Assembly: GCA_021513695.1 (NCBI GenBank)
Contig: CP084166.1
Location: 1,568,001-1,632,000, forward strand
Reading direction: 5' to 3'
DNA from: Candidatus Heimdallarchaeum aukensis
Lineage (GTDB): Archaea; Asgardarchaeota; Heimdallarchaeia; Heimdallarchaeales; Heimdallarchaeaceae
Length of the DNA stretch: 64,000 nucleotides
Made by a program: the position numbers and the translations under genes. This document shows positions 17,923-34,803 of this stretch, piece after piece; within the stretch, counting starts at the first letter, position 1; each line of letters opens with the position of its first letter. The notes beneath the pieces were generated by a model. The model was not told the origin of the DNA. It worked only from the letters and a program-made list of their open reading frames with translations, and did no database searches.

Positions 17923-18309
17923 TTATTTCCAAACTTTTAGAAACTCTGGCATTTCTTCGAAGTTTACAATTGGTATTGATACGGGCCATCTAGCATCACT
18001 TACTTCATCAGCGAATTCGAACTCTTCCTTTGGACTTGTTCTATATCTTATAAATGATCCTGCAGGAGGTTCATCATTTTCTATCCAGACCACTATTGGA
18101 AGAGCTCTTAAGTTATAGTATCCTAAGCTAGTGTTGAACATGAAAAAAATATTCCTATTCGCTTCTTTTTCATAAAAATATCCAATATAACCAGTCACTC
18201 TATCTGATAAAGTTGAAGCAATGAGTTTTATTATATCTGATAATCCCTTAAGTTTTATTGACGCAGCTTTTTTTATATTATCTACTATTTCATCCATATT
18301 AACCACCAA
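17923..18309 (-). CDS. Hypothetical protein (128 aa) immediately downstream of atpK
   Basis: Clean ORF 19 nt after the atpK stop on the same strand. No motif recognised. Confidence 0.45.
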   Translation of the reverse strand: MVVNMDEIVDNIKKAASIKLKGLSDIIKLIASTLSDRVTGYIGYFYEKEANRNIFFMFNTSLGYYNLRALPIVVWIENDEPPAGSFIRYRTSPKEEFEFADEVSDARWPVSIPIVNFEEMPEFLKVWK

Positions 18310-18328: not shown

Positions 18329-18634
18329 TTAGAAGATTAATAGAATAGCTACAAGTAGACCATAAATTGCTACTGCTTCAATAAGCACGATGAACAAGAA
18401 GATTTTACCAAAAATCTCTGGTTTTTCAACTAATGCGCCTATACCAGCCGAACCAGCTGAACCCATTCCGAGTGCACTACCGATTCCTGCTAGACCTATT
18501 GCTAGAGCAGCGCCTATAGGTCTCATATCTCCTTCTTCACCTAGAGGAATTTCTGCAGCGAATGTACCTTTTGCGGTTATAATGATAAGCGCAACAATTG
18601 CTAGTAGTCCAATAATCAGATCATTTTTTTTCAT
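18329..18634 (-). CDS. atpK: A/V-type ATPase proteolipid subunit K (c subunit)
   Basis: Gly-rich helix GAALAIGLAGIGSALGMGSAGSAGIG and a second helix with the conserved carboxylate (FIVLIEAVAIYGLL). The track ORF extends to 18730, but the Met at 18634 (MKKNDLIIG...) is the plausible start. Confidence 0.8.
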   Translation of the reverse strand: MKKNDLIIGLLAIVALIIITAKGTFAAEIPLGEEGDMRPIGAALAIGLAGIGSALGMGSAGSAGIGALVEKPEIFGKIFLFIVLIEAVAIYGLLVAILLIF

Positions 18635-18834
18635 AATACGTCCCTTTTTCACGTGTTTAAAATTACAAATCATCGTTTCTTTATTAGTTTTTTGTATTGG
18701 ATACTTTTTAATATTGAATACTTTTTTCAATAAAAAAGTTTTAAGAATAACATATTTTATATTTCATGTATAAGTAAGAAAGCAAACCTATAATAAATGG
18801 GAAAACTTTATGATTATTAAGAAAAGATTCTATC

Positions 18835-19452
18835 GTGAGTAAAATGTTTGGAAACTTTATGAGATGGTTATTAGGAACTCAAAAATCAAGTAGAGACCAT
18901 ATAGTAAACCTTAAACTAACTATTCGCAGACTAGAAAGAGCTCAAAGGAAACTGGAGAGAGATGAATCAAGAATACAACTAAAAATGCGAACAGCTATTC
19001 AGCGTGGTGATTTAGAAGGTGCCCGTCTTTATGCTACAGATATTGTTCGTTCTCGTAAGTGGGTTTTAGGTTACCAGCGTTTAGTTTCTCGTATTAATGG
19101 TCTTATTTTTAAACTAGAACGAGCTGATTCTGCTGCTAACTTGGCAGCTGAAATGCATTCTATTGCAGGAGCTCTTCGACAAGCTAACGCTCAATTAAAT
19201 GTTCCTGATTTAGATCATGTTATTCAAGACATGGAACGTAGTATTGATGGAATTGAGGATTCAACTGAAACAATTGAAGATGGAATTGATGATCTTCTTA
19301 TTGCTGATACCGACCCAGCTGAAGTCGATAGGTTAATTGACCAAACAGCTACAGAGATGGGTGTTAGTGTAGGAGGAGAACTCCCTTCAGTAAGCGCTGT
19401 TGCAACAGACGATCTCGAGGAAGAGATTCAAAAATTAAGGAAAAAAGAGTAA
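18835..19452 (+). CDS. ESCRT-III, Vps2/24/46 (CHMP1-3)-like Snf7-family protein
   Basis: By-eye alignment to CHMP2: ARLYATDIVRSRKWV vs VRIMAKDLVRTRRYV, and MGVSVGGELPSVS vs LGLSLTDELSNLPS. The C-terminal MIM-like DLEEEIQKLRKKE matches DLEERLKNLRRD. Confidence 0.85.
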   Translation: MSKMFGNFMRWLLGTQKSSRDHIVNLKLTIRRLERAQRKLERDESRIQLKMRTAIQRGDLEGARLYATDIVRSRKWVLGYQRLVSRINGLIFKLERADSAANLAAEMHSIAGALRQANAQLNVPDLDHVIQDMERSIDGIEDSTETIEDGIDDLLIADTDPAEVDRLIDQTATEMGVSVGGELPSVSAVATDDLEEEIQKLRKKE

Positions 19453-19456
19453 ATAT

Positions 19457-19462
19457 GAGGTG
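19457..19462 (+). promoter_or_regulatory. Shine-Dalgarno-like GAGGTG before the second ESCRT-III gene
   Basis: GAGGTG lies 5 nt upstream of the ATG at 19468, and only 15 nt separate the two ESCRT-III genes. Confidence 0.45.
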
Positions 19463-19467
19463 TTTAT

Positions 19468-20127
19468 ATGGGTATGAAAAACTGGTTATTTGGAACCAAA
19501 CGCAAGGATGATGCTGAAGCTTTAGCTACACTCAAAGCTCAGATCAATCGATATGAGCACGAGTCCCGCAATTTAGAACGTCAAGCTGATGAACAAAAAT
19601 CTTTAGCTGCTAAGATGTTAAAGTCGGGTAATAAAGCTGGAGCTAAACAAGCTCTTAAGCGTCGAGCTATTTATATGAAACGTTTAAATCAGGTTCAAAA
19701 TATGCTAATGAACCTTCAGAGTCAGATTGATAGTATTCAAACTGCAACCTCTACTGTTGAAACAGTAAAGGCAATGGAGTTAGGTACGAAAGTTGTCAAG
19801 ACGAAGATGCAAGAAGTTGATGTAGAGAAAACTGAACGTGTAATGGATGAAGTTATGAGTCAACGTGATGAAATTGAAATGATGACAGAAGCTTTATCTG
19901 ATACTGCACTAAGTGAGAGCATTTTAGATTACGAAGATGATGTCGCAATTGATGATCAACTTGCTCAATTAGAAGCCGAGATGAATCTTGGTAAAACAGA
20001 AGAATTACCAGATCTTTCAGATCTTCCTTCAACTCCATCAGAAAAACCGACTGAAAAAGAAGAAGATACTTCTGACCTTGAAGCCGAATTAGCTTCTCTT
20101 AAGAAGAAGTTAAGTGATGACAAATAA
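19468..20127 (+). CDS. ESCRT-III, Vps20/32/60 (Snf7/CHMP4)-like protein
   Basis: AKQALKRRAIYMKRLNQVQNMLMNLQSQIDSIQTA aligns by eye with CHMP4 ALQALKRKKRYEKQLAQIDGTLSTIEFQREALENA. The C-terminus is acidic with a terminal amphipathic helix (DLEAELASLKKKL). Confidence 0.85.
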   Translation: MGMKNWLFGTKRKDDAEALATLKAQINRYEHESRNLERQADEQKSLAAKMLKSGNKAGAKQALKRRAIYMKRLNQVQNMLMNLQSQIDSIQTATSTVETVKAMELGTKVVKTKMQEVDVEKTERVMDEVMSQRDEIEMMTEALSDTALSESILDYEDDVAIDDQLAQLEAEMNLGKTEELPDLSDLPSTPSEKPTEKEEDTSDLEAELASLKKKLSDDK

Positions 20128-20254
20128 TAATAATCAAATTCTTTTTTCAATTCTTTTTTTCATCATTTTAGAAACGAACAGTTTTTTAACGATAATGATG
20201 TTACTAGTTTAGTAATTCAATTAATAGGATTATTCAGTTAGAGAGGTTAAAGAA

Positions 20255-21400
20255 TTGAGCGCGCAAGGACTGATTGAACACGCACGTAAATTTGCAAAAA
20301 AAGCTTATGAACTTGATAAGGCAAAACAATACAATGAGGCAATACCACTTTATCTCGACGCTGCAGAAGCTCTAATGAAAGCAATAAAATTTGAAAGAAA
20401 TCCACAAGTGGGAAAGACATTAAAGAAAAAAGCAGAGATGTACATTGAACGAGCAAAAGATCTAAAAGAAATTATTGAGAAAAAAGCTGAAAAGGGGGCA
20501 GAAACAGGGTCAGACGAAGAATCTGATAAATTAGAAGGAGCAATTAGCGATATCATAGTTACAGAAAAGCCATCAGTTACTTTGGATGATATTGCAGGAC
20601 TAGAAGAAGCAAAACGGAATCTTCGAGAAGCAATAGTGTTACCTCTTGTAAGACCAGACTTATTTAGTGGTGCAAGAAGACCATGGAAAGGGATTTTACT
20701 TTTTGGCCCCCCAGGATGTGGAAAAACTCTTTTAGCAAAAGCAACAGCTGCAGAAGTAGAAGCTACGTTTTTTAATGTTAGTGCGTCCGCGGTTATATCC
20801 AAATGGTTAGGAGAATCTGAAAAATTAGTTAATACATTATTTAAAATTGCTCGTGAAAGGCAACCAAGTATAATTTTCATAGATGAAGTAGATGCTCTTA
20901 CCGGAGCACGTGGTGGCGAGCATGATGCTATGCGCAGAGTTAAAACTGAATTATTAACTTCTATGGATGGTTTATCTAGCTCTGCTCAAGATCGTCTTGT
21001 AGTTATTGGGGCTACTAACCTTCCTGAGTCTATTGATGGAGCTTTTCGCCGTCGTTTTGAGCGTCGTATTTACATTAAGCTTCCAGATTTTGAAGCGCGT
21101 AAAGCTATCTTTCAACTAAATGTCAAAGGAGTGGACTTAGCTCCCGATGTTGATTTTGAATCTTTAGCAGAGATTACAGAAGGTTATTCTGGAGCAGATA
21201 TTGCTATGGTTTGTCGCGATGCTATTATGACTCCTATTCGTGAACTTGATTTATCAGGAGACATTCATGACCCCAATATTAAAGCCAGACCAGTTACACA
21301 AAAAGATTTTCTTGAGTCTATTCAGTCAGTTAATCCTTCTGTAAGTGCAGAAGAAATCGAGAAATATGAGAAATGGAATGAAGAATTTGGTTCAGCGTAA
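20255..21400 (+). CDS. vps4: Vps4-like AAA+ ATPase with N-terminal MIT domain
   Basis: MIT-like helices AKKAYELDKAKQYNEAIPLYLDAAEALMKAIKFERNP. Walker A GPPGCGKT and Walker B IIFIDEVD. The C-terminal helix EEIEKYEKWNEEFG matches the Vps4 pattern. TTG start preceded by GAGAGGT. Confidence 0.95.
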   Translation: MSAQGLIEHARKFAKKAYELDKAKQYNEAIPLYLDAAEALMKAIKFERNPQVGKTLKKKAEMYIERAKDLKEIIEKKAEKGAETGSDEESDKLEGAISDIIVTEKPSVTLDDIAGLEEAKRNLREAIVLPLVRPDLFSGARRPWKGILLFGPPGCGKTLLAKATAAEVEATFFNVSASAVISKWLGESEKLVNTLFKIARERQPSIIFIDEVDALTGARGGEHDAMRRVKTELLTSMDGLSSSAQDRLVVIGATNLPESIDGAFRRRFERRIYIKLPDFEARKAIFQLNVKGVDLAPDVDFESLAEITEGYSGADIAMVCRDAIMTPIRELDLSGDIHDPNIKARPVTQKDFLESIQSVNPSVSAEEIEKYEKWNEEFGSA

Positions 21401-21412
21401 AAGGGTGTTTTT

Positions 21413-21433
21413 ATGATTTACCTTTTTACGTAA
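21413..21433. repeat. Left terminal inverted repeat of element B
   Basis: ATGATTTACCTTTTTACGTAA. The reverse complement of 23311-23331 is ATGATTTACTATTTTACATAA. Confidence 0.7.
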
Positions 21434-21707
21434 GTTTTTCGCACTCGGTCTTTCAAGGGAGAAAACAGGAGTTTCATCACTTGATAACTCAACCACAACA
21501 TACAATGAAAGGAAACGTGGTTAAGACAGACGTCATACACGAATCGTGGGAATCATAAAGAAGGAAAAGAAAAAAGTAAGAAAGGAGAAAAGAAAGGAGG
21601 TTATCTCCTTCTTTATTCTACTTTCTTTTCTTTCCTTCACTCCACGAGAGACGAAAAAACAAACAAATAATCCTCTAACAAGAGAGAATGTAAGTTTATA
21701 TTTTCAT
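21413..21707 (-). ncRNA. Candidate omega-RNA/reRNA scaffold of element B (decayed copy)
   Basis: The non-coding stretch between the tnpB stop and the element end shares conserved blocks with copy A. The CTTAACC/GGTTGAG helix at 21488-94/21519-25 stays paired only in the tnpB-sense RNA, through a U-G wobble. Confidence 0.3.
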
Positions 21708-23161
21708 CTACTGGGGCTGCAACCAATGGCTGAGCCCTTGGCAAACAGTGAAATGAGTGAGACTAAATTTACGACCAGTGAGTAGATCAGTAATAGTTGT
21801 TGCACGGGGGCGGAAAAGAGAACTAAGGAGCAGACGAGCGATATTCATTGCTCCTGTTAGATCAGAGTGGAAGGTGTAATTGCAAGAGGGACAATAAACT
21901 AACCCTCTAACGGGGCGGGTAACTTTTTTTCCGCAACGGGCACAGTGAGATGATGTTCCTCTTTCCTCTATCGTCAGAATTCGGTGAGAGGGAAAACCTC
22001 TAAGTATTAGTGCACGACGGATAAAAGAAAGAACAAGAGCATAGTTCCACTGGTGAAGTTTTCTTCGTGACTTGCGATTAGTTACTCCCTTATTTTTTTC
22101 TCGTCGAATGTATTTAGGATAACCTATAACAACGAAAAGATTATAGATCCGAGCATAAACCTCTATTGTCCACACGATAGCACTTACAAATTGATTGATA
22201 TACGCTCGTCTGACGTTTCTATACCTCCGACGGAGACGTTTGAGAAAACGGTAAACTTGGTGTTTTTTACCCGATTGGTCGTTTAAAGCTGCTTTCCTCT
22301 GAAGACGGGAAAGTTTGAGTTTATATCGATGATTAACTTTATTCCACTGTTTGGTATACTAGAACTTTATTTCTTTACTTGTTACCTTCTTTTTCGGGGT
22401 CAGTAGCACTTCTACCGCAGGAATGTTTATCCCTAGATCTATTCCCAGCACAGCTGGGGGAAGAAAAGAAGAGTCAGAAGAAAGATTATCTCCCTGAAGG
22501 AAAGAAGAAGGAAGAACTTTTGAATGAAAATATATCCACCATTCACGTGTAGAACGTTTGTATCTTATTTCTAAACTTTTTACTCTTTCTTTAATTCTTT
22601 TTGATGAAACTCGCTCATCTCTAAAGGTAACCACAATCGCTGATGAAAACGTGTTTTTCTTTTCCACCTATCTAACGAGTCTCGTATTCCTACCCACCAA
22701 CGAGAAAGAGTGTTATTCTTATCTTTTGGTAGATGGACGAGGATGAACCTTTTTTTATTAATTAATTGTCTTCTTGCTCTCTTTCTTGGAGGACGAGTAT
22801 TGTTAGGTCTATATCCTTGCTCATATAGTTGCACAGCTATATCTCTACATTCTTGAAACTCATCGTGAGAACAATAGGGAAACATTTTCTTCATATCGTG
22901 AGGAACAGTCGTTCTTCTTTCTTCCTCTTTTTTTACTCTCGAGGTCGTTAATGTCAATTCGTCTAATTTTCCTTTATGTACTTTTATTTTCCCTTCTTTT
23001 GCTTTAATACCTATTTTTTTTCTGTTATGGTGTATAATTCTCACATACTTTTCTATTATTCTAGTATCTCTCCCCGTTATTCTCCTTAACTTTTCTTTTT
23101 TTCTCGTCGTCAATACTTCATTCTTCACTCTCACCTTTAACGTTTTGACGACGTCCTCCAT
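21708..23161 (-). pseudogene. tnpB: tnpB pseudogene (frameshift plus premature stop)
   Basis: Three track ORFs (22580-23161, 22359-22667, 21708-22175) together reproduce the 484-aa copy-A protein. There is an indel near 22585-22595 relative to copy A. TGG became TAG at 22359-22361 (KFWYTKQ in A, KF*YTKQ here). Confidence 0.85.
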
Positions 23162-23310
23162 CCTTTTTTTCTCCTCTTATTTTACTCTCTCTTTTTTTCT
23201 ATTTTTTTCTCTTCTTTTACTTCTTCTCTTCCTCATTATACTTTTTTTCCCTATAAAAAGTCCTTTCTTTTCTTTTTTTCTCATTATTCTTCCTCAATTT
23301 TTATATAAAG

Positions 23311-23331
23311 TTATGTAAAATAGTAAATCAT
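23311..23331. repeat. Right terminal inverted repeat of element B
   Basis: See 21413-21433. The terminal ..TCAT abuts a G, so the first ATG of the next ORF (23330) is built from the element end. Confidence 0.7.
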
Positions 23332-24130
23332 GGCTACAATGGAAAAACAAAAAGATAATGAATTTGAGCAAATTGATCTTGAAAAATTGAAAGAAGAAAA
23401 GAAAATATCAGAAGATAAGCTTAAGCTTATTGAAGCCAGTATTAAGGGATTAAAAGTTTCAGAAGAAGAACTGAAGTCCACGAAACCTATTGTTAGAGAA
23501 GAAGCAAGATTAGAACTAACAGAAGACACAAAGACGAAGCTAATTAAAGAATTTGAGCAAAGTTTACCTGATTGGGTTAACAAGCCTTGGATGTATGTCA
23601 CCCCAAAAAAGGCAAATCAAGTTGAGTCTTGGTTAGACAGTTGGTCATCAGTCATGCTTGATTATACAAAGAAATTTGTTATTCATATTGTTAATGTCAA
23701 TTCTCTTAGAGAAACTTATCCTTTTTGTAATAAGAAAATAAGAAAAGAACTTACCATCGATCAAATTCGTGATATCATCGATTTTCTTGAAACAAAGGGT
23801 TTTGCTCTTTGGATAAATGATAGGACAAAATTCTTTGAGAAACTTTTTGCAAAGATACTTGGAAAACCTTTAACAAAAAAGATCCGTGCAAAGATAGAAT
23901 GGAAAACAAAAGAAGAATTTGCTGAAGATTTACTTAAATGGATGATTGAAACCGGTAGAGTAGTTGAAGTTCACTCTTTATATGATTTAACAAAATATGA
24001 ACAACCCTGGTCTTCTTTACCTTCAGATGATTTAATCCATGTATGCAATTTACTCGTAGAAAAAGGTTCTGCTAGATGGTTAAATAGAGAAAGAACTATA
24101 ATTTCCTTTGAAGCAACAAAGGTATTCTAA
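23330..24130 (+). CDS. Vps25-like ESCRT-II subunit (two winged-helix domains) with a charged N-terminal extension
   Basis: The C-terminal 170 aa align by eye with human EAP20/Vps25: VESWLDSWSSVMLDYTKKF vs QLAAWCSLVLSFCRLH, DIIDFLETKGFALWIND vs VLEELRKKGNLEWLDK, and WKTKEEFAEDLLKWMIETGRVVEVHSLYDL vs WRRPEEWGKLIYQWVSRSGQNNSVFTLYEL. The native start may be the ATG at 23339. Confidence 0.7.
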   Translation: MATMEKQKDNEFEQIDLEKLKEEKKISEDKLKLIEASIKGLKVSEEELKSTKPIVREEARLELTEDTKTKLIKEFEQSLPDWVNKPWMYVTPKKANQVESWLDSWSSVMLDYTKKFVIHIVNVNSLRETYPFCNKKIRKELTIDQIRDIIDFLETKGFALWINDRTKFFEKLFAKILGKPLTKKIRAKIEWKTKEEFAEDLLKWMIETGRVVEVHSLYDLTKYEQPWSSLPSDDLIHVCNLLVEKGSARWLNRERTIISFEATKVF

Positions 24131-24183
24131 CTTTAATTTTTATTTTAATTTTATTTATTTACTATTTTTTGTGATGTAATGCT

Positions 24184-24621
24184 ATGTTTAAAAATTATAT
24201 ATTGAATAGACTTTTGAGATTTATGTCTTTAGACGATGAAGAATTACAAAGGATTCGAGAAAAAAAGGCACAACAACTTAGGCAAATTTTAGAACAGAGA
24301 AAATCAAAAATGGAACAACTTAAACAAGAGGAAACAGCGCCAAAAAGCATTACAAAAGAGGACAAGTATCGTTTAATGAATTATTTTCTAACTGATGACG
24401 CTTTTTCTTATTGGAAGAGTCTATATGAAAATCCACAAAAGCATAATACAGCAGAAACAATTTTCATTAATTTGCTCTATCTGATTAAGATTGGTTTTAT
24501 GGAAGGAAAACTTATCTCTCTTCTAGGAATTAAAAAATTAGAAAGAAAAATAGATAATATTCCTTCTAAAATCACAATAAAGAGAAAAGGAGAAAAAGAA
24601 AGATCCAAAGTTTTGGATTAA
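24184..24621 (+). CDS. PDCD5/TFAR19-like double-stranded-DNA-binding family protein
   Basis: DDEELQRIREKKAQQLRQ..., then a helical core (LMNYFLTDDAFSYWKSLYENPQKHNTAETIFINLLYLIKIGFMEGKLIS...KITIKRKG). These parallel PDCD5 (ELEALRRQRLAELQ ... [41 protein letters not shown] ... VKFNRR). The start may be Met14. Confidence 0.6.
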   Translation: MFKNYILNRLLRFMSLDDEELQRIREKKAQQLRQILEQRKSKMEQLKQEETAPKSITKEDKYRLMNYFLTDDAFSYWKSLYENPQKHNTAETIFINLLYLIKIGFMEGKLISLLGIKKLERKIDNIPSKITIKRKGEKERSKVLD

Positions 24622-24697
24622 TAATTGACTTTTACTTATTAGGTTACATTTATTTAGGATAATGAAAATAAAGTATTAGAAAGGAGCTGATGGATAA

Positions 24698-24934
24698 ATG
24701 AAGTTGAGTATTGTTACCGCAATAGGAGGAGGTCTTTTAGAATTAGATGTTGATAGCCATCAAACAATTGCACAACTTAAAAGAGAAGTTTCAAGAATTA
24801 AAAAGATACCTGCAAATACAGTTATTTTGGTTCATCATGGTCAACAGTTAGATGATGGTGAAACAATTAAGAGTTGCGGATTACAAGAAGGAGATAAACT
24901 CTATCTAATTGCAAGAACAAAAGGTGGACTTTAG
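24698..24934 (+). CDS. Ubiquitin-like beta-grasp protein ending ...RTKGG-L
   Basis: 78 aa. The pattern matches ubiquitin (TIAQLKREVSRIKKIPANTVILVHHGQQLDDGETIKSCGLQEGDKLYLIARTKGGL vs [55 protein letters not shown]). AGGAG lies upstream of the ATG. Confidence 0.85.
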   Translation: MKLSIVTAIGGGLLELDVDSHQTIAQLKREVSRIKKIPANTVILVHHGQQLDDGETIKSCGLQEGDKLYLIARTKGGL

Positions 24935-25009
24935 CTTTTCTATTTCAAAATTTTTTTAGAAGAATAGAAACTGTTTTATTACTTCTAAAAGATATTTTTG
25001 TGAAAGTGG

Positions 25010-26014
25010 ATGTCTAAAGAAGGTAGATATGCGAGACAGACTCTCATACCTGGTTGGAATCAGAAGAAACTCAACAAATCAACAGTTATTATTGTTGGTG
25101 TGGGAGCAATTGGATCATATGTATCAACGATTTTAGCTTCTTCAGGAGTAAAAAATCTCATTCTAATTGATTTTGATACTATTGAAATCTCTAATCTTAA
25201 TCGTCAATTACTATTTCGGGATGGAGATATTGGAAAATCCAAATCTGAAATTGCAGCTATGCGATTATCGGAACTAAATCCAGATATTAACATTACCTTT
25301 CATCATAAGAAGATGCAAGATTTACCTATTTCTATTTACAAAAAAGCAGATGTCATTGTGGCTTGTCTTGATACCTTCATTGGAAGAAGATGGATAAATT
25401 CACTTGCTGTAAAAATAAACAAACCTTTAATTTTAGGTGGAATGTTTGCTTTTCTAGGAGATGTTCAAGTTGTTTTACCAAAAAAAACTGCTTGCTTTGA
25501 TTGTCAACCTTTAGTTGCAGAAAGAGAACTTGCGCAAGCTTGTACTCCATTCGGAGAAGAAAGGAAGAAAAACAGAGAAGAAAAAGAGGATGAAGCGAAA
25601 TTACCATCTGTAGCCACATTGTCTGCGATTATCGGAGGAATTATGGCACAAGAAGCCTTAAAACTTCTTTTAGACATAGGTGAACCAATCAAGAATTATC
25701 TTTTCTATGATGGATTACATAATGCAACAACAATAATTGAACTTGCAAGAAGAAAAAAAGATTGTCCAACTTGTGGAGAACTATATGAGTTGGAACAAGT
25801 CGAATTTGTGGTAAATAAAGATAATACCGTCAAAGAACTATTAATCCAATTAGGTTTACAATTCGGACTTGAGAGCCCAGACATTATGATTAAAGGGAGG
25901 ATACTCCCTCACGATTCAAAAATCCAAGAACTAGGTATAAAAAATAACATGAAGGTTTTTGTAATGGACAAAAATTTAGCTTCACCAATCAAGTTAAAGT
26001 TAAAGATTGAGTGA
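25010..26014 (+). CDS. E1-like ubiquitin-activating enzyme (ThiF/MoeB fold) with C-terminal beta-grasp/UFD-like domain
   Basis: Rossmann motif VGVGAIGSYV, then DFDTIEISNLNRQLLF. Zinc-type cysteine pairs CFDC and CPTC. A charged crossover-loop insert (EERKKNREEKEDEAK) follows ACTPF. The last ~70 aa (VKELLIQLGLQFGL...MKVFVMDK) look like a beta-grasp domain. Confidence 0.85.
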   Translation: MSKEGRYARQTLIPGWNQKKLNKSTVIIVGVGAIGSYVSTILASSGVKNLILIDFDTIEISNLNRQLLFRDGDIGKSKSEIAAMRLSELNPDINITFHHKKMQDLPISIYKKADVIVACLDTFIGRRWINSLAVKINKPLILGGMFAFLGDVQVVLPKKTACFDCQPLVAERELAQACTPFGEERKKNREEKEDEAKLPSVATLSAIIGGIMAQEALKLLLDIGEPIKNYLFYDGLHNATTIIELARRKKDCPTCGELYELEQVEFVVNKDNTVKELLIQLGLQFGLESPDIMIKGRILPHDSKIQELGIKNNMKVFVMDKNLASPIKLKLKIE

Positions 26015-26025
26015 AAAAAGAAAAT

Positions 26026-26751
26026 TTAGGTGTGTGACAGTCCAGGGAAATAATATTTAGTTCCTTCAGCATAGGAACTATCTACTCTTGCTATACCATT
26101 TTCTTCAAAAAATGATAAGCAACGATTAATTCTTTCCTCTGCCCACCCTGTTCTAAGTAATAGATCTTCTTTTGTTACAAATCCTGTTCTTGAAGCAATG
26201 TTTAATATTACATCATGGTCGGGACTGAATTCAACAGGAGCAAATTCTACTAGTTTCACTCCAGATTCTAAAACTTTGAAAGGTGGAATTAATTTTGAAT
26301 TTATGAGTTTCTCTAATGAACGATACAAGTCATCAATTGTAACTAGTTTTCCAGGTCTAGTTTTATTTAATTGGGTAAACAATTCACCTACAGACATTAT
26401 ACCTCCATTTTCTTCTATAAGTTTTTGACCCAAATCCATGATTTCGTTTGCTAAAACATCATAGAAACCTTTTCCTGTTAATCTATCTTTTAGAGTTGGA
26501 GCTTCTTTCCATTCATATCTCCCTATTTCTGTAGGTAAGCCTAGTTCTTCTCGCAGGCCAGCAAGTTTTTCATAATATTCTTTATTTTCAACTATTTTAT
26601 CACCATATTTCTTTTCAAATTTCTTTAGTTGCTTTTTAACTTGTTTAATATTTTCCAACATTTGTTCTAATTCTTTTATCATTAATTCGGCTTCTTTAAC
26701 TTGGAAAGCTGACTTCACTTTTAATTTCTTTTCAATATCTCTTAAGCCCAA
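26026..26751 (-). CDS. EAP30-domain ESCRT-II subunit (Vps22/Vps36-like)
   Basis: By-eye alignment to SNF8/EAP30: FYDVLANEIMDLGQKLIEENGGIMSVGELFTQL vs [33 protein letters not shown], and DHDVILNIASRTGFVTKEDL...W..ER....L..FEENGIARVD vs DHTVVLQLAEKNGYVTVSEI...W..ER....L..LLKEGLAWLD. An N-terminal coiled coil is present. Confidence 0.8.
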   Translation of the reverse strand: MGLRDIEKKLKVKSAFQVKEAELMIKELEQMLENIKQVKKQLKKFEKKYGDKIVENKEYYEKLAGLREELGLPTEIGRYEWKEAPTLKDRLTGKGFYDVLANEIMDLGQKLIEENGGIMSVGELFTQLNKTRPGKLVTIDDLYRSLEKLINSKLIPPFKVLESGVKLVEFAPVEFSPDHDVILNIASRTGFVTKEDLLLRTGWAEERINRCLSFFEENGIARVDSSYAEGTKYYFPGLSHT

Positions 26752-26823
26752 CTTTAATCACTATTTTTTATTTGTCAGTGAGATATAAAAAATATACTAT
26801 TTAATTTCGCAATTAGCTTAGAG

Positions 26824-27132
26824 TTAAAAAAGGAGAGGAAGTCTTCTAATCCACTCTTTAATTGAATTCATAAGCTTTTTAGATTCATTTGGAGGAAGAA
26901 AAGCTGCTAGTTTGTCTTTATAGTTTTTGTATAGTTTTTGATAAACGCTGTCCATTTCATCAACAATTGAATCATTTACCAAATTGATTTTTTTAACAAG
27001 ATGTTTTATCTCTTCCAACTCTTCTAAGATGTATGAACAGTCAATTTTTATTTCTAAGAGATCCATCAACTCGAATAAACTATCTTTTGCTTTATTATAG
27101 GTATTTTCTAAAGATTTTCTCCTAGAAATCAT
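26824..27132 (-). CDS. Small all-helical protein (102 aa) between the ESCRT-I-like and ESCRT-II genes
   Basis: Heptad-like, charged helical sequence. It has its own SD-like GAGGAG 6 nt upstream of the ATG. No family recognised. Confidence 0.5.
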   Translation of the reverse strand: MISRRKSLENTYNKAKDSLFELMDLLEIKIDCSYILEELEEIKHLVKKINLVNDSIVDEMDSVYQKLYKNYKDKLAAFLPPNESKKLMNSIKEWIRRLPLLF

Positions 27133-27168
27133 GTTTACTCCTCTAAAAAGGCTGGATAAAAGATAGGA

Positions 27169-28638
27169 CTACATATCTTTTAAAATTCGTCTAAATTCGT
27201 TTAACCATCTTGATGCTTGGAATTCTAGTTTTTCACAATCGTCTTCATTTATTATTTCACTTGGTTTATAATTTGAAAGAATGTCTTTCCAGTTTTTCAT
27301 ATCGCTGAGCATCCAATGATCTTGCGGAATAGATGGAAACGAGTGCAAAACATGAATTAGCTCTTCTACGTCAGCCAACAGCAAATCAGCTCGTGCGACT
27401 GATTTAAGCCTTGTTAGATCAATTAATTCAATTGCAGCTGAAACAAAATCAGCTGTTTTTACAGGCATTTTCTTTAAGGATTCAAATGGTATCATTTCAA
27501 CATCTTTAGTTCCAGTTCCTTCAGCCATTTGTAGCAATCTCATTCCTTTGTCAAATCTATTTAGCAGATTTTCTTGCTCTATAAACGAATCGAGATCAAA
27601 TCCACCTAATTGTTCCAGTTTCATTCTTGTTTTGAAAACTGTTCTTATTAGTGATCTTAACTGCTTTTTATATGCAACTTGCTCAATCTCACCATTTTCA
27701 TACCCTCTCGCTAAATTATCTAATGTCACTATTGCTGCATATAAATCAGCTTCAAAATCTAATCTTTTATCTAAATCACTAGGCATTACTTGTCCTCCAA
27801 CATTTTCTAAATAAGCTAATTTTTTATTTGTCTTATAACTTTCCACTGAATATTTTCTATAAAGTTTCAAGTAATCAACACTTGAAAGATCTCCATCATC
27901 AAATTTCTCATTTAATAGCTCTAATAAGTCATTAGATGCTCTTGAACTTGCTTTTAAATCATCGGTTACAGAAATTGTAAGTTCTTTTAATGAATGTGAA
28001 GGCTCAGCTTTCTTGATTAGAGCAGCTCTTTTTTCCTCAATTTGTTTATTTAGTTCGTTTATCTGCTGCTGATACGCTTCTATCTCTGCTTCAATAGTAC
28101 TTTTTTCTATCGATGTTTGACTCCGTTCATTAAAGGATGGTACACTTTGCTTACGTACAGTGTGACGTGAAACTGTTCTTGGTTTCATCGGTTGAACTAC
28201 AGATCTAGACACACTCCTAGCTGTAGACATATGCTTTGTTCTTAATGGTCTTGCAGGAACATTAGCAAATAATCGCCGAATATCATTTATAACTTGATAA
28301 ATATGATAGCGTGGTTTCCATTGAGCGAGTATTTGCAAACTAAGAAAGTCATTGTCGTCAACATTAGGATGATTTACTTTAGGAGTAATTTCAACTTGAG
28401 GAGGAATTCTTGGGAACTCTGGAGAGATATATATTGTAGCATAAACAGTTATCTTCGTTCCTTGAATTATCCCTACAGGGCCTTTCCACTTTCTTAAATT
28501 GCCTCCTACTGGCTCAAATCCTTCAACATTATTATAAATTAATTGCATCTCATTAGCAAGAATCTGATCTAGAGAAATTTGTCTCACCTTTACTCTTCTA
28601 TTATTGTTATAAACTTCAAAGTTTAAAAAATATTGCAT
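27169..28638 (-). CDS. ESCRT-I-like fusion: UEV/E2-variant domain + coiled-coil stalk + Vps28-like domains
   Basis: Residues ~45-125 have a UBC fold (KWKGPV..GT...V...I....FP..PP.V.....V.HPNV) with Ser100 where E2s carry the catalytic Cys (DFLSLQIL vs GSICLDIL). A coiled coil spans ~170-205. The C-terminal ~200 aa align by eye to Vps28 (DLYAAIVTLDNLARGYENGEI...Y vs ELYSLIITLDHLEKAYLKD.I...Y, plus a C-terminal helical bundle). Confidence 0.75.
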   Translation of the reverse strand: MQYFLNFEVYNNNRRVKVRQISLDQILANEMQLIYNNVEGFEPVGGNLRKWKGPVGIIQGTKITVYATIYISPEFPRIPPQVEITPKVNHPNVDDNDFLSLQILAQWKPRYHIYQVINDIRRLFANVPARPLRTKHMSTARSVSRSVVQPMKPRTVSRHTVRKQSVPSFNERSQTSIEKSTIEAEIEAYQQQINELNKQIEEKRAALIKKAEPSHSLKELTISVTDDLKASSRASNDLLELLNEKFDDGDLSSVDYLKLYRKYSVESYKTNKKLAYLENVGGQVMPSDLDKRLDFEADLYAAIVTLDNLARGYENGEIEQVAYKKQLRSLIRTVFKTRMKLEQLGGFDLDSFIEQENLLNRFDKGMRLLQMAEGTGTKDVEMIPFESLKKMPVKTADFVSAAIELIDLTRLKSVARADLLLADVEELIHVLHSFPSIPQDHWMLSDMKNWKDILSNYKPSEIINEDDCEKLEFQASRWLNEFRRILKDM

Positions 28639-28729
28639 TCAAAAAAAAGAGTCTTTTCTTGAGAAAAAAATATATGAAAAAAAATTGATTATAATTCTAA
28701 ATTACAATAGAACCTAGGAATAAACTCTT

Positions 28730-29272
28730 TTACTTTCTATTTTTGACTAAAAGTGTAGCTAGTTTCACAAATGCTTCTTGAACATGTTCTCCTGTAAGTG
28801 CACTTGTTTTTATGAAATCCAAACTATTGATTTTGTTTTGTAATGATTTACATTCATCATCTGATACAGCAATTTTATCTTCTAAATCATTTTTATTTCC
28901 AACTAAGATGGTAAGGGTGTTCTTTCCACAGTTTTTAACAAGTTCAGAGTTCCATTTCTCTAGATCAGTTAGTGTTGAATTCCTGGTTAAATCGAAAACC
29001 ATCAGTGCTGCTTTTGCTCCTTTAAAGAAAGTATGTCTTATAAACCTAAATCTATCTTGTCCTGCTAGATCCCAAATTGAAAGAGCTACAACTGTATTGT
29101 CCTCTAATGTAACAAATTTCTCACTCGGTTCCATACCTATTGTCATCAGATAACTTTGTTCAAAACGATTATGAACAAAACGTTGTACAAGAGATGTCTT
29201 TCCTACAGCGGCGGCACCTAATAGAAGTATTTTGAAATTGAAATCAGGACGAATTGAACGCATTATTCTCAA
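28730..29272 (-). CDS. Rab/Ras-like small GTPase
   Basis: G1 GAAAVGKTS, G3 WDLAGQD, G4 GNKND and G5 TSAL. By eye it aligns end to end with Rab-type GTPases. There is no C-terminal Cys prenylation motif. The likely start is the ATG at 29263 (MRSIRPDF...). Confidence 0.9.
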   Translation of the reverse strand: MRIMRSIRPDFNFKILLLGAAAVGKTSLVQRFVHNRFEQSYLMTIGMEPSEKFVTLEDNTVVALSIWDLAGQDRFRFIRHTFFKGAKAALMVFDLTRNSTLTDLEKWNSELVKNCGKNTLTILVGNKNDLEDKIAVSDDECKSLQNKINSLDFIKTSALTGEHVQEAFVKLATLLVKNRK

Positions 29273-29275
29273 CTT

Positions 29276-29572
29276 TTACATTTTTTTTGCTTTTACAAGC
29301 TCTTCTTTTAAACTTTTAAGATAGTATGTTTCAAAATTTTCTTCTGCGCGTTTAATAGTAGTAAGAGAAATACAGAGATCTAATATGAATTCATATTGTT
29401 CTTTTTTCTCTTTCTGTGGTTTGAATGCTTTAAATTTTTTTAATAAATACTCGGCTAACTTTGACGCTTCTTTTTTTGTTAATGTTCCTTGCTCATATAA
29501 ATTAATAATTAACTCCATTTTCTCTATAGTAATATCATTGTTAATCTCTTTTAACGACAAAATTTTACTCAT
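29276..29572 (-). CDS. Small helical hypothetical protein (98 aa), first gene of the GTPase/ESCRT-I/II strand
   Basis: Clean ORF ending a few nt before the GTPase start. Lys/Glu-rich helices. No family recognised. Confidence 0.5.
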   Translation of the reverse strand: MSKILSLKEINNDITIEKMELIINLYEQGTLTKKEASKLAEYLLKKFKAFKPQKEKKEQYEFILDLCISLTTIKRAEENFETYYLKSLKEELVKAKKM

Positions 29573-29791
29573 ATGCTATCTATTCATTTTTTTCGGTTAA
29601 TATATGTTTTGCTGTTAAACTGGTTAGAAAATTGCTATCAGGGACTTATAATTAGATCAATAAATCAGATATTATATTTAAAATTGAGTAAGAAATTTCA
29701 ACAAGGATAACCTTTAGAAAAAGATAAAATAACCAAATAACTATTTTTGGGAGAAATATAAATTTAAAAATGGAAAAAAAAAATAATTTTA

Positions 29792-30499
29792 ATGACAAAA
29801 AAAACAATACTTGCTTGTTTTGCCCATCCTGATGATGAATTGGGTTGTGTTGGAACATTAGCAAACCATGCAAAAAATGGAGATAGAGTTGTAATTGCAT
29901 GGACTACTAGTGGTGAGATGGCTTCTTTTTTTGAAGGGATGAGTTTTGAAGAAGTAAAAGATATTAGAGAAAAACAAGGAAGAGAAATCGGTAAAATCAT
30001 AGGAAGTAATGTAGAAACTATTTTCTTAGGTTATGGTGACACAGAAGTCATTCCTACTAGGGAAAATGCTATTAAAATGGCAAAAATAATTGCTAAAATT
30101 AAGCCAGATGCCGTTATTAGTTGGGGATTTAATAATCGACACCCAGATCATAGAGGAACAGTACAATTATTGTATGATGCTATGACATATGCTAGAATCC
30201 CAAGAATAACAAGTCCTGACCCTCCTCACAGACCTCCATTTCATATACCCATGTTCTTATATTATGAGAAAATCAGCCCTTTACGAACAGTTTACGTAGA
30301 TATTAGTGAAACTTATCCTCAGGTAGAAAAAGCGTTTAGACTTTACGCTGATTTCTATGGATGGTCGGTAAGTGATTGGATTCATGTAAGAAGAAGAACA
30401 GATGGAATGGATTGCGGAGTAAAATTCGCAGAGAAATTTAATGTTTTTTCAAGATATGAGCCATATTCATCTTTATTACCAATAAATAATGATGCATAG
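29792..30499 (+). CDS. PIG-L/LmbE family N-acetylglucosaminyl deacetylase
   Basis: Signature AHPDDE (LACFAHPDDELG) and a later HPDH (NRHPDHRGT). 235 aa. Confidence 0.85.
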   Translation: MTKKTILACFAHPDDELGCVGTLANHAKNGDRVVIAWTTSGEMASFFEGMSFEEVKDIREKQGREIGKIIGSNVETIFLGYGDTEVIPTRENAIKMAKIIAKIKPDAVISWGFNNRHPDHRGTVQLLYDAMTYARIPRITSPDPPHRPPFHIPMFLYYEKISPLRTVYVDISETYPQVEKAFRLYADFYGWSVSDWIHVRRRTDGMDCGVKFAEKFNVFSRYEPYSSLLPINNDA

Positions 30500-30538
30500 A
30501 AAAATCTAGAAAAAATCCAGTGCTGATTTACTTTTTTA

Positions 30539-31162
30539 TTATTTTTCATCATCAGTTTGCTTCTCTTCTTTTTCTTCTTCATTTTCTTCTTCAAAGAAGT
30601 CATCATCAAACATTAATACACTGTCTAAAACAGAGTCAAGGGAAGGTCTTTCAGGAGGAGTTAATGGTATATCTGCTTTATCTGCAACAGAAATATCTAA
30701 AGATGAAAGATCTGCTCTCGCTCTTCTTCTCGTTGTTGGAGTCGTACTAACATATTGAATATTCTTTAACATTGATTTAACAGAACTGATTTCTTCTTTC
30801 AAATCTTTCAGAGAACTGAGTGCATTAATTTTTTCTAAAAGCTCATCTACTTTCTCTAACTCTCTTTTGGTTTTCTCTTCAAACTTTTTACTTGTTTCAG
30901 TTATCTTTGCAAACTGGCCTTCAGTTATGTTTATTCTTCTAGGAATTGAGGGTTCAGTGGGTGGAAAAAACAATGCAGGAGATGCTTTTAATTCTTCAAG
31001 AGAACCAAATTTTTCACTATGGTGTGCCTTGATTGACGCAAGAATTGCAGTTATAGGGTTTCCATATTCCGTCATTAAATCTTCAATCATATCCCATATT
31101 GCTATAGGAATTGGTACTTCTATTATTCTAGCTATCCTTTGCTTCTTTTTTTGAGAATACAT
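30539..31162 (-). CDS. Hypothetical protein with central coiled coil and strongly acidic C-terminal tail
   Basis: 207 aa. The N-terminal region could be ribbon-helix-helix-like (RIARIIEVPIPIAIWDMIEDLM), which is a weak call. The tail is FDDDFFEEENEEEKEEKQTDDEK. Confidence 0.5.
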   Translation of the reverse strand: MYSQKKKQRIARIIEVPIPIAIWDMIEDLMTEYGNPITAILASIKAHHSEKFGSLEELKASPALFFPPTEPSIPRRINITEGQFAKITETSKKFEEKTKRELEKVDELLEKINALSSLKDLKEEISSVKSMLKNIQYVSTTPTTRRRARADLSSLDISVADKADIPLTPPERPSLDSVLDSVLMFDDDFFEEENEEEKEEKQTDDEK

Positions 31163-31397
31163 TATTTTCTACCAGATTAATTAGTAATTTGAGTATTTAA
31201 TTAAAGACCACTACTTTACACATCTCTGATAATACTTCTCTGTATATAAATATACTTTTTAATCTACTAAAATCAAAGAATGATAAATATTAGACAATAA
31301 TAGGAATTTTAACCTAATTAAAAAACAAACTGTTAAAATAAGAAGATAAGGTAGAAAGGAAAGATCCTTTCTCTCTCTCCCTTTTAATAGAATTTTC

Positions 31398-31670
31398 TTA
31401 TGCAGTGTCTGTTACTTTGCTTTCTTCTTGTAGGAACTCAAAAGTTTCACGTAACTCAGGAGCTAAGTAATAATAGACCGACCGCATATCTGATAGATTA
31501 GACATTTTCTTTAAAATGCCTTTTTCTAGAAGGCGTCTAATACCATAACGAACTGTTCGTTCTGGTTGTTCTACAGATGCTAAGATCTGTTTCTGTGTCA
31601 TTGGTCCTTTTTCGTCCAATACTTTTATTATATCTTCTCCGCCTCGGGGTAATTTTCGTCTTTTCATCAT
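31398..31670 (-). CDS. Small winged helix-turn-helix DNA-binding protein
   Basis: 90 aa. DIIKVLDEKGPMTQKQILASVEQPERTVRYGIRRLLEKGILKK is a typical wHTH (MarR/TrmB-like) core. AGGTGA lies 3 nt upstream of the ATG. Confidence 0.65.
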   Translation of the reverse strand: MMKRRKLPRGGEDIIKVLDEKGPMTQKQILASVEQPERTVRYGIRRLLEKGILKKMSNLSDMRSVYYYLAPELRETFEFLQEESKVTDTA

Positions 31671-31692
31671 GATTCACCTTTTTTTTGTTCAT

Positions 31693-31709
31693 CTAGTGTT
31701 TTACACTAG
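31693..31709. promoter_or_regulatory. 7-bp perfect palindrome (CTAGTGT-ttt-ACACTAG) 22 nt upstream of the wHTH gene start
   Basis: 31693-31699 is the reverse complement of 31703-31709. Its position in the 5' region of a DNA-binding protein gene suggests an autoregulatory operator. Confidence 0.3.
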
Positions 31710-31767
31710 CTTTAACACATGCATATTGAGCGTAACTCAATCAAACTACTGGGTTTATAAACTTTTG

Positions 31768-31851
31768 CCTAGTCCGAGAGCATCTCTGCTAATGCAATGA
31801 ATACGTATCATTGTTGCGTATGTTTATCCATACACACAACGCGGACTTAGG
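31768..31851. ncRNA. Cloverleaf-like 84-nt element of unknown nature (not a canonical tRNA)
   Basis: The closing stem is CCT-AGTCCG / CGGACT-(T)-AGG. It encloses three hairpins: AGAG-cat-CTCT, CAATGA-atacgta-TCATTG, and GTATG-tttatc-CATAC. GC is above local background. There is no T-loop GTTCRA, no D-loop and no proper spacers. Confidence 0.15.
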
Positions 31852-31964
31852 AATTCGCCCAAACCCCAAATTTATTGAAGTTACTGTTACTCAGTATTTA
31901 CTATTCTCATCTAAGTATATAATGATTTCTATGTAACAAAATAAAAAAATTATATATATTTAAC

Positions 31965-32867: not shown

Positions 32868-32912
32868 AATAACAAAGAATTACTACATAAAACATAAATG
32901 TTTTCTTTGGAC

Positions 32913-32935
32913 ATGATTTACTTTTTTCCGTAAGT
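32913..32935. repeat. Left terminal inverted repeat of element A
   Basis: See the mobile_element entry; 20/23 match to the inverted right end. Confidence 0.75.
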
Positions 32936-33173
32936 TTTTCGCACTCGGTCTTTCAAGAGAGAAAAACAATAAAATAGCTTAATCGCTTGGTAACTCAACC
33001 TAAACATACAATGAATGGGAGTGGTTGAGACAGACATCATACACGAATCGTGGGAATCATAAAGAAGAAAGGAAGAAAAAAGTAAAACCTTTTTTCTTTT
33101 TTCCTTCACTCCACGAGAGACAAAAAAGAAAGACTAACTCTAACACAAGAGGATAGAATTAGTTTCTTTTCGT
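32913..33173 (-). ncRNA. Candidate omega-RNA/reRNA scaffold of element A
   Basis: A 261-nt non-coding stretch between the tnpB stop and the element end. Its blocks are conserved with copy B (CGCACTCGGTCTTTCAAG, CATACACGAATCGTGGGAATCATAAAGAAG, CCTTCACTCCACGAGAGA). Conserved hairpins: CTCAACC/GGTTGAG (32994-33000 / 33023-33029) and a purine/pyrimidine hairpin at ~33066-33106. Confidence 0.4.
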
Positions 33174-34628: not shown

Positions 34629-34780
34629 CTTTCTTTCCTCTTTTCTTATTCTAAACTTTTTTCTTCTCCTTTAATTATACTTTTTTTCCCTATAAAAATT
34701 CCTCACTTTTTCTTCTCTCCCTCCCTCTTCCTTCCTTCTTTCCTTTCTTTTTTCGTTGCACTCTTCCTCAATTTTTATAA

Positions 34781-34803
34781 ATTTACGTAAAAAAGTAAGT
34801 CAT
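34781..34803. repeat. Right terminal inverted repeat of element A
   Basis: ATTTACGTAAAAAAGTAAGTCAT, the inverted match to 32913-32935. Confidence 0.75.

Follow-up and report, generated by a model that had tools for sequence, protein, structure and literature searches.

The window analysed here is a 64-kb stretch of Candidatus Heimdallarchaeum aukensis, and the subject is the cluster at positions 18835–29572, where an earlier note made from the letters alone had placed a eukaryote-type supercluster of ubiquitin and endosomal sorting complex required for transport (ESCRT) genes. The cluster is real: the open reading frames (ORFs) lie where that note put them, and Pfam, PDB, fold and orthology searches support each assignment. 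The ORF listing and Pfam scans give 12 intact genes, not the eleven first counted, plus one decayed insertion element. The plus strand carries, in order, ESCRT-IIIA, ESCRT-IIIB, Vps4, the element, Vps25, a PDCD5-like gene, ubiquitin and E1. The minus-strand unit comprises, in transcription order, a gene for a 98-amino-acid (aa) protein, a small GTPase, an ESCRT-I fusion, a 102-aa gene and Vps22, so that the 98-aa gene heads this unit and not the GTPase, as had been proposed. The two units do converge at the predicted point, where the E1 stop codon ends at 26014 and that of Vps22 starts at 26026, leaving an 11-nucleotide (nt) spacer. Two published relatives are used for comparison, the locus of Heimdallarchaeote AB_125 (HeimAB125_14040–14070 and neighbours; Hatano et al. 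2022, PMC9192718) and that of H. endolithica PR6 (CP084167.1; Wu et al. 2022, PMC8813620). For gene order, the window proteins were mapped onto 36 loci, 29 of which are GTDB species loci of the Heimdallarchaeaceae.

The plus-strand unit opens with ESCRT-IIIA (18835..19452, 205 aa) and ESCRT-IIIB (19468..20127, 219 aa), separated by a 15-nt spacer that contains GAGGTG. Both match Pfam Snf7 (PF03357, cut-off 27.3 bits), at 71 bits (1.2e-19) and 93.8 bits (1.2e-26), respectively. Their PDB matches split them into the Vps2/24/46 (CHMP1-3) and Vps20/32/60 (Snf7) classes, in agreement with the CHMP1-3-like and CHMP4/Snf7-like pair that had been proposed: ESCRT-IIIA is closest to CHMP1B (6.7e-18), followed by CHMP1A, CHMP2A, Vps24 and CHMP3, and ESCRT-IIIB to the HeimAB125 ESCRT-IIIB itself (9ftl, 3.2e-93), with yeast Snf7 next at ~1e-14. 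ESCRT-IIIA is 76% identical to its AB_125 counterpart and 99% to that of PR6; the identity of ESCRT-IIIB to AB_125 ESCRT-IIIB is 74%. The latter protein forms filaments (PMC9192718; PDB 9ftl), and its membrane-bound polymerisation has been reported (PMC11791191).

The C-terminal tails may connect this pair to the neighbouring ATPase. ESCRT-IIIA carries, as the earlier note had seen, a MIM1-like helix, DDLEEEIQKLRKK, that is kept in 22 orthologues; the feature is however not particular to this first protein, since both tails end in a family-conserved LxxxLxxL(K/R) helix with MIM1-like spacing (DDLEEEIQKLRK in ESCRT-IIIA, DLEAELASLKKKL in ESCRT-IIIB). ESCRT-IIIB has in addition a proline-rich LPDLSDLPSTP stretch (family form LPDxSxLPSTP) and a C-terminal LEAELASLKKKL helix. 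The central Arg of MIM1 and its acidic residue at -3 are absent from both tails. Vps4 (20255..21400, plus strand, 381 aa) presents all four expected Pfam domains above cut-off (MIT 52.3, AAA 144.6, AAA_lid_3 54.3 and Vps4_C 48.4 bits), with intact Walker A (GPPGCGKT), Walker B (IIFIDEVD) and pore-loop (KWLGESE) motifs, and identities of 77% to AB_125 and 96% to PR6. From these motifs, a contact between the MIT domain and the MIM-like tails would be predicted.

The ESCRT-I protein (27169..28638, minus strand, 489 aa, the true start probably being a GTG at ~28584) is a single-chain fusion of a UEV domain, a coiled-coil stalk, a probable Vps23 core/steadiness box and a full Vps28. UQ_con scores 45.5 bits (7e-12) and VPS28 (PF03997) 45 bits (1.4e-11) over profile positions 2–188 of 188. 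Vps23_core (PF09454) reaches 24.7 bits (2.3e-5) against a cut-off of 26.8, and many orthologues carry precomputed matches. In the UEV domain the HPN motif is invariant, and the catalytic Cys of E2 enzymes is replaced by Ser100, indicating a catalytically dead domain; the same column in 15 aligned UEV orthologues holds Ser, Asn or Ala, never Cys. The fusion is a 51%-identical orthologue of HeimAB125_14070, whose UEV domain is likewise described as lacking the catalytic Cys and binds ubiquitin (PMC9192718). Among its 48 homologues, the named ones belong to Heimdallarchaeota/Heimdallarchaeaceae, bar two stray labels ('Bathyarchaeota' and 'Thorarchaeota'). The Pfam scans gave no Mod_r or Mvb12 match, and hence no Vps37 or Mvb12 subunit, on any ORF scanned.

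The two ESCRT-II subunits are split between the strands. Vps25 (23330..24130, plus strand, 266 aa) matches Pfam ESCRT-II (PF05871) at residues 87–224 with 59.2 bits (6.6e-16, cut-off 27), preceded by an N-terminal extension of ~86 charged residues, and is 54% identical to HeimAB125_14040 and 95% to the PR6 protein. Vps22 (26026..26751, minus strand, 241 aa) matches EAP30 (PF04157) at residues 2–224 with 80.9 bits (1.4e-22, cut-off 26.8), covering profile positions 2–218 of 219, and is 78% identical to HeimAB125_14050, which has been shown to homodimerise (PMC9192718). This is the only EAP30 gene of the locus and no PH/GLUE match occurs in the window, so that Pfam scans give no Vps36. The earlier note had staked its ESCRT-I and ESCRT-II calls (a UEV-Vps28 protein, a Vps25-like and an EAP30 subunit) on profile hidden Markov model or structure searches; EAP30, ESCRT-II, UQ_con and VPS28 all score above cut-off, and orthology to AB_125 and the missing catalytic Cys point the same way.

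The ubiquitin and E1-like genes also proved to be what they had been taken for. Ubiquitin (24698..24934, plus strand, 78 aa) matches Pfam ubiquitin (PF00240) with 51.2 bits (1.1e-13), conserves Val45 of the hydrophobic patch and ends in RTKGG followed by one extra residue (L). Across its orthologues the GG is followed by 0–2 variable residues (L, N, F, Y, S, YC or none), a precursor-trimming pattern which implies C-terminal processing by a protease that the cluster does not encode. The E1-like ubiquitin-activating enzyme (25010..26014, plus strand, 334 aa) scores 218 bits against ThiF (1.3e-64), and its best PDB matches are UBA3 (4e-38) and UBA1 (2e-34), with ThiF and MoeB lower. Weak Ubiquitin_5, ubiquitin and ThiS matches at residues 256–321 suggest a C-terminal beta-grasp-like domain. 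Six Cys are invariant in 28 orthologues, among them a CxxC...CxxC set (Cys162/165/252/255) and Cys178 in a QACTPFG loop, the latter being a candidate for the thioester-forming catalytic residue.

A catalytic E2, a RING or other E3 and a JAB or other deubiquitinase, which had been reported missing from the cluster, are absent even among all ORFs of at least 90 aa in the 64 kb and among the shorter cluster ORFs scanned. By analogy with AB_125, whose E2 candidates (07740 and 09840) are encoded far from its locus (PMC9192718), these enzymes would be expected elsewhere in the H. aukensis genome. The sole RING-related signal in the window comes from a 472-aa protein at 53140–54558, with weak N-terminal B-box and ANCHR-like B-box zinc-finger matches (E ~3e-4, below cut-off).

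Three small ORFs had been left small or unassigned in the earlier note, and two of them can now be assigned. The first (24223..24621, plus strand) lies ahead of ubiquitin; its 145-aa ORF opens at 24184 and most likely starts at the 14th codon, which gives a product of 132 aa matching all orthologues and 100% identical to H. aukensis K9W45_06815. Its AlphaFold2 (AF2) model has a predicted local distance difference test (pLDDT) score of 75.8, and the six best PDB matches in Foldseek are all PDCD5 (probability 0.91–0.99, template-modelling (TM) score up to 0.66, E 0.04–0.3), including Sulfolobus 6iqo/6iqc (probability 0.99), human 2cru and yeast 2jxn/2fh0 (TM 0.66). At the sequence level, Pfam dsDNA_bind (PF01984) matches 2 of 12 family members (E 0.004, below cut-off), IMG names several orthologues 'TFAR19-related (PDSD5 family)', and a profile of the family searched against PDB sequences found no PDCD5. 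The modelled fold thus supports a PDCD5-like protein, if only weakly by sequence, as the note had it when it put such a gene inside the ubiquitin operon. Wherever a Heimdallarchaeaceae locus extends far enough to include it, the gene stands upstream of ubiquitin, although L011 and L013 have the two on opposite strands. In the literature library searched, no paper connects PDCD5, Asgard and ubiquitin.

The second (26824..27132, minus strand, 102 aa) sits between the ESCRT-I fusion and vps22 in every locus, and its sequence agrees at 100% with an H. aukensis entry at NCBI. Its AF2 model (pLDDT 94.3) is a bundle of four helices whose four best Foldseek matches are Vps28 C-terminal domains (CTDs; TM 0.72–0.78). 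Conversely, when a profile of the fusion's own Vps28 CTD was run against 1717 ORF segments, the top 11 non-self matches were 102-aa orthologues (E 3.7e-4 to 0.8). The protein has no Pfam VPS28 match, and its hhalign comparison with the fusion is insignificant. Considering the fold, the CTD-profile ranking and the fixed position, the best reading is a free-standing paralogue of the Vps28 CTD; separately encoded Vps28-C genes occur in some Asgard genomes (Makarova et al., PMC11188069). The family is small, with 10 representatives in an exhaustive search of 1.84 billion proteins, and a word-indexed homologue search recovered the query itself only. Two other identities were discarded. A steadiness-box hairpin of the Loki/Thor style has in its favour a 12-column hhalign match to the Vps23 core of the fusion only, and the model is a four-helix bundle. 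The NCBI label 'YtzH-like' is probably spurious, since the match scores under the cut-off and occurs in 2 of 13 members.

The minus-strand unit begins with the third small ORF, the 98-aa gene (29276..29572), followed by the Rab-like GTPase (28730..29263, 177 aa). The latter bears out the proposed Rab/Ras-like identity with 153.9 bits against Pfam Ras (3.6e-45), intact G1–G5 motifs and best PDB matches to a Thorarchaeota Rab (3.7e-37), Rab4B and Rab11; as it has no C-terminal Cys, it would not be prenylated like eukaryotic Rabs. Both in the window and in the 16 species loci of Heimdallarchaeaceae that have the two genes, the 98-aa gene lies immediately upstream of the GTPase; the pair is 12 nt apart in the window, overlapping in AB_125, and overlapping or 12–13 nt apart across the family. 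The 98-aa protein remains without a fold assignment: it has no consistent Pfam match, and hhalign comparisons with the fusion and with the 102-aa protein are insignificant. It weakly matches the N-terminal hairpin of yeast Vps28 (E 0.13), and one 98-aa orthologue is the top non-self match of the fusion's Vps28-N profile (E 0.0055); these leads are mutually consistent but too weak for an assignment. Two further genes neighbour the GTPase pair family-wide, one at 30539–31162, whose 207-aa product contains a coiled-coil region, bears an acidic tail and gives no Pfam match, and one at 31398–31670 for a 90-aa winged-helix protein.

Compared with AB_125, the window contains the same 12 gene families, with protein identities from 40% to 78%, and both loci lack an E2 or E3. 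In both, a small gene stands between vps22 and the gene of the UEV-Vps23-Vps28 fusion, a PDCD5-like gene precedes ubiquitin, and a 98-aa/GTPase pair is nearby. The arrangement differs, however. In AB_125 the PDCD5-like, ubiquitin, E1, fusion, small and Vps22 genes make up a single array of one orientation, convergent with Vps25, Vps4 and both ESCRT-III genes; the GTPase pair is found ~3.5 kb upstream, on the far side of PIG-L. The window has the ubiquitin block in inverted orientation, flanked by vps25 and vps22; its GTPase pair is immediately next to the fusion gene, and the insertion element parts vps4 from vps25. A Lokiarchaeal affinity was considered and dropped, the best relatives being all Heimdallarchaeaceae.

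Taken across the family, the canonical order starts with the winged-helix gene of 90 aa (+), 98-aa (+), GTPase (+), 207-aa (−) and PIG-L (+), and after a gap continues with PDCD5-like (+), ubiquitin (+), E1 (+), fusion (+), 102-aa (+), Vps22 (+), Vps25 (−), Vps4 (−), ESCRT-IIIB (−), ESCRT-IIIA (−), ATPase-c (+) and a 128-aa gene (+). It agrees with a rule from the literature, in which vps25 is linked to vps4 and ESCRT-III, and vps22 to vps23/28 (PMC11188069). The GTPase pair is 3–6 kb distant in most members, and ubiquitin and E1 directly adjoin ESCRT-I/ESCRT-II genes in every locus containing them. The window order is found only in the window, its Logan twin and PR6 (L001 and L008 among the mapped loci). 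In these, two blocks are inverted: that of PDCD5-like, ubiquitin and E1, now flanked by vps25 and vps22, and that of the 207-aa gene and PIG-L, now on the far side of the GTPase pair. At least 4 reversals separate this order from the canonical one in a breadth-first search. The genus Heimdallarchaeum has thus reshuffled the locus, bringing PDCD5-like, ubiquitin and E1 co-directionally behind vps25 and the 98-aa/GTPase pair directly upstream of the ESCRT-I gene. The arrangement, whose comparison with published clusters the earlier note had called for, is therefore a variation, at the level of the genus, on a family order that is highly conserved; because the order is restricted to the window and PR6, the convergent junction at 26014/26026 and the adjacency of GTPase and ESCRT-I are genus-level novelties, already present in a public complete genome.

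PR6 shares the rearranged order in full, collinear at 88–94% DNA and 91–99% protein identity, which agrees with the published average nucleotide identity of 88% between the two Heimdallarchaeum species (PMC8813620); ESCRT and ubiquitin go unmentioned in that paper. PR6 differs from the window in a distinct insertion of 1.2 kb that parts ESCRT-IIIA from the ATPase c-subunit gene, and in lacking both TnpB-type copies described below.

The insertion noted after vps4 is a decayed TnpB-type element of ~1.92 kb (21413..23331, minus strand), bounded by 25-nt terminal inverted repeats (21413–21437 and 23307–23331) with AT on both flanks. Over 1959 nt it is 80.5% identical to an intact copy at 32913–34803, which has 25-nt inverted repeats and AT flanks as well and a 484-aa TnpB-like ORF on the minus strand (33174–34628); no transposase is recognisable in this TnpB-only copy. 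The tnpB-like gene of the cluster element has one frameshift and one in-frame stop, leaving three ORF fragments, is split into two frames by tblastn, and carries a Cas12f1-like_TNB domain match. A third, unrelated TnpB-like gene of 432 aa lies at 62247–63545 on the minus strand (Cas12f1-like_TNB 7.5e-19, weak OrfB_IS605). In PR6 both element positions are empty sites, and only 12 nt, containing a GAGGTG ribosome-binding site, separate the vps4 stop from the vps25 ATG. The window element is inserted exactly between this ribosome-binding site and the ATG. Its absence from PR6 makes the insertion recent and confined to H. aukensis; the element would have entered after the reshuffling of the genus and then decayed. 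The Logan assembly of SRR15988954 matches window positions 23030–32958 at 100%, breaking inside both element copies, so that the insertion junction is present in an independent assembly. At 22 nt upstream of the vps25 ATG, the end of the element contributes a TTTATATA box, a possible outward promoter from which a leaderless vps25 mRNA might be made.

Similar interruptions are seen elsewhere in the family. Independent mobile elements occupy intergenic positions of the cluster in L014 (13133–14701), L017 (11941–13176 and 16398–19077), L009 (3750–6293) and L008 (18005–19200); these elements include TnpB-like genes, as well as an IS607-like serine recombinase with a large TnpB-like gene. Interruption of the cluster is thus recurrent and evidently tolerated. 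The ESCRT-III/Vps4/Vps25 half has lost its adjacency in L014.

Putting these results together, we read the region, with a probability of about 90%, as the ubiquitin-ESCRT locus of Candidatus H. aukensis, orthologous gene for gene to the AB_125 locus and probably working by the same route. Mechanistically, ubiquitin would be made with one extra C-terminal residue and then trimmed. The E1-like enzyme would adenylate it, form a thioester (candidate Cys178) and pass it to E2 and E3 enzymes encoded elsewhere, which would conjugate it to targets. The dead UEV domain of the single-chain ESCRT-I would in turn bind the ubiquitylated targets, and its Vps28 C-terminal bundle would recruit an ESCRT-II made of a Vps22 homodimer and Vps25, a step at which the 102-aa Vps28-CTD-like protein probably helps, modulates or competes. 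Vps25 would then nucleate the Snf7-like ESCRT-IIIB, with the CHMP1-3-like ESCRT-IIIA co-polymerising on membranes, and Vps4, through its MIT domain and the MIM-like tails, would disassemble and recycle the polymer. For the AB_125 proteins, ubiquitin-UEV binding and two-hybrid links of ESCRT-I with ESCRT-II, of Vps25 with ESCRT-IIIB, and of ESCRT-III with Vps4 have been reported (PMC9192718).

Several points weigh against this reading. No E2, E3 or deubiquitinase is encoded within 64 kb, so that conjugation is a prediction as far as the window goes. The case in H. aukensis itself is built on orthology and intact motifs, what the PDCD5-like, 102-aa and 98-aa proteins would do is read solely from conserved position and fold, and the Vps23_core match of the fusion is slightly below the Pfam cut-off. 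Finally, the insertion cuts vps25 off from the operon promoter and the ribosome-binding site, and may disturb the stoichiometry of ESCRT-II.

The likeness to the eukaryotic pathway extends to the UEV receptor, the N and C domains of Vps28, the winged-helix Vps22 and Vps25, the two ESCRT-III classes, a Vps4 with MIT and Vps4_C, a ubiquitin with a residue trailing its GG, and an E1 whose best matches are UBA3/UBA1. Unlike in eukaryotes, ESCRT-I is one polypeptide, lacks a recognisable Vps37 or Mvb12 and is accompanied by an extra free-standing Vps28-CTD-like protein; ESCRT-II lacks Vps36, with Vps22 homodimeric in AB_125; there are only two ESCRT-III paralogues and no ESCRT-0, and the E1 consists of one small chain. 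Loki/Thor ESCRT clusters, with their free-standing steadiness-box protein, and Asgard genomes with a separate Vps28-C likewise encode a small helical protein related to ESCRT-I between vps28-like and vps22-like genes (PMC9192718; PMC11188069). In contrast to Loki/Thor, the small protein of the window is a bundle of four helices like the Vps28 CTD instead of a steadiness-box hairpin, and is additional to the complete Vps28 of the fusion.

Three other explanations were weighed. The ESCRT genes could serve mainly cell division or abscission in a Cdv-like manner, with ubiquitin and E1 as a separate protein-modification or sulfur-carrier (SAMP/ThiS-MoeB-like) module linked to them in the genome only. 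A small, single-domain ThiF-fold E1 of 334 aa with a MoeB-like tetracysteine would suit such a module, as would a cluster without E2 or E3 and a ubiquitin/E1 block that shifts position and orientation between lineages (in the window and PR6, and in the 65%-identity relative L006, where E1 is inverted). Yet this E1 scores higher with UBA3/UBA1 than with ThiF/MoeB, the small protein matches Pfam ubiquitin and has the GG and variable trailing residue of eukaryotic ubiquitin precursors, and both genes adjoin ESCRT-I/ESCRT-II genes wherever they occur in the mapped loci. Moreover, the ESCRT-I gene encodes a UEV domain whose AB_125 orthologue binds ubiquitin (PMC9192718). We therefore regard a separate module as very unlikely. 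Just as improbable, in our view, is that the insertion uncoupled vps25 from expression and that the locus is heading for decay in this strain. The element does separate the vps25 ATG from the GGTG ribosome-binding site, puts 1.9 kb of sequence of the opposite strand behind vps4, and has parallels inside the cluster of other family members. However, all 12 ORFs are intact at 91–99% protein identity to PR6, and the element is itself decayed, with its frameshift and its stop, which indicates that the host has carried the insertion for some time; the TTTATATA box could moreover drive a leaderless transcript.

A third explanation concerns the accessory genes only, and takes the PDCD5-like, 102-aa, 98-aa and GTPase genes for unrelated neighbours kept near by slow rearrangement within one family. 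The synteny evidence does come from a single family, the Heimdallarchaeaceae, the 102-aa family counts few representatives in a very large protein collection, and the GTPase pair lies at a distance in most members. Against this, these proteins have diverged deeply (40–60% identity), yet their positions hold amid the surrounding insertions and inversions; the 102-aa protein is folded like an ESCRT-I domain and in sequence weakly resembles the fusion's CTD, and the 98-aa and GTPase genes overlap or nearly touch. Unrelated neighbours are thus unlikely, although a more serious contender than the two explanations above. The opposite proposal, that the three accessory proteins are undescribed parts of the Heimdallarchaeaceae ubiquitin-ESCRT pathway and that the rearrangement fused units into two functional operons, is speculative and we think it rather doubtful. 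Under it, the 98-aa protein would be a free-standing Vps28-N or steadiness-box-like hairpin that completes a three-hairpin ESCRT-I headpiece (the role of Vps37 in eukaryotes) and tethers the Rab-like GTPase to ESCRT-I; the 102-aa bundle would gate the hand-over from ESCRT-I to ESCRT-II, and the ubiquitin/E1 module would have a cofactor of its own in the PDCD5-like protein.

As the earlier note recognised, the system as such is not new: it has already been described, its AB_125 orthologues are characterised biochemically (PMC9192718), and the present locus belongs to a published complete genome and brings no new principle. Particular to this locus are the genus-specific reshuffling, the one decayed mobile element before vps25 and the three small conserved accessory genes. 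The Asgard ubiquitin-ESCRT system is central to ideas on the origin of eukaryotic membrane trafficking, and the synteny map over 29 species adds candidates for interaction tests in the form of invariant neighbours: the PDCD5-like gene before ubiquitin, the Vps28-CTD-like gene between ESCRT-I and vps22, and the 98-aa/Rab-like pair. The two sister species also provide a natural experiment, since both have the locus in its rearranged form and a mobile element, inserted recently and datable, severs vps25 from its operon and ribosome-binding site in one of the two.

Among the genes around the cluster, an ATP-synthase c (proteolipid) gene (18329–18730) and a 128-aa gene without Pfam match (17923–18309) adjoin ESCRT-IIIA on the opposite strand. 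This adjacency is kept in nearly all family loci extending that far, and the other A/V-ATPase genes are 20 kb away. The window also encodes an unusually long V-ATPase subunit I/a homologue (41278–44406, 1042 aa), with a Pfam match at residues 487–791 only, and has an adjoining subunit d (AC39) gene (40290–41291). A 660-aa ORF on the plus strand (2593–4575) has no Pfam match at E 0.001 or better. An actin homologue of the known Asgard type lies at 44868–46004 (378 aa, Pfam Actin 3.3e-132). A Roadblock/LC7 gene (39867–40247) is found beside prolyl-tRNA synthetase ~10 kb from the cluster, and in L006, with Roadblock/LC7 at 6720–7100, the same pair directly abuts the 207-aa/PDCD5-like/ubiquitin block.

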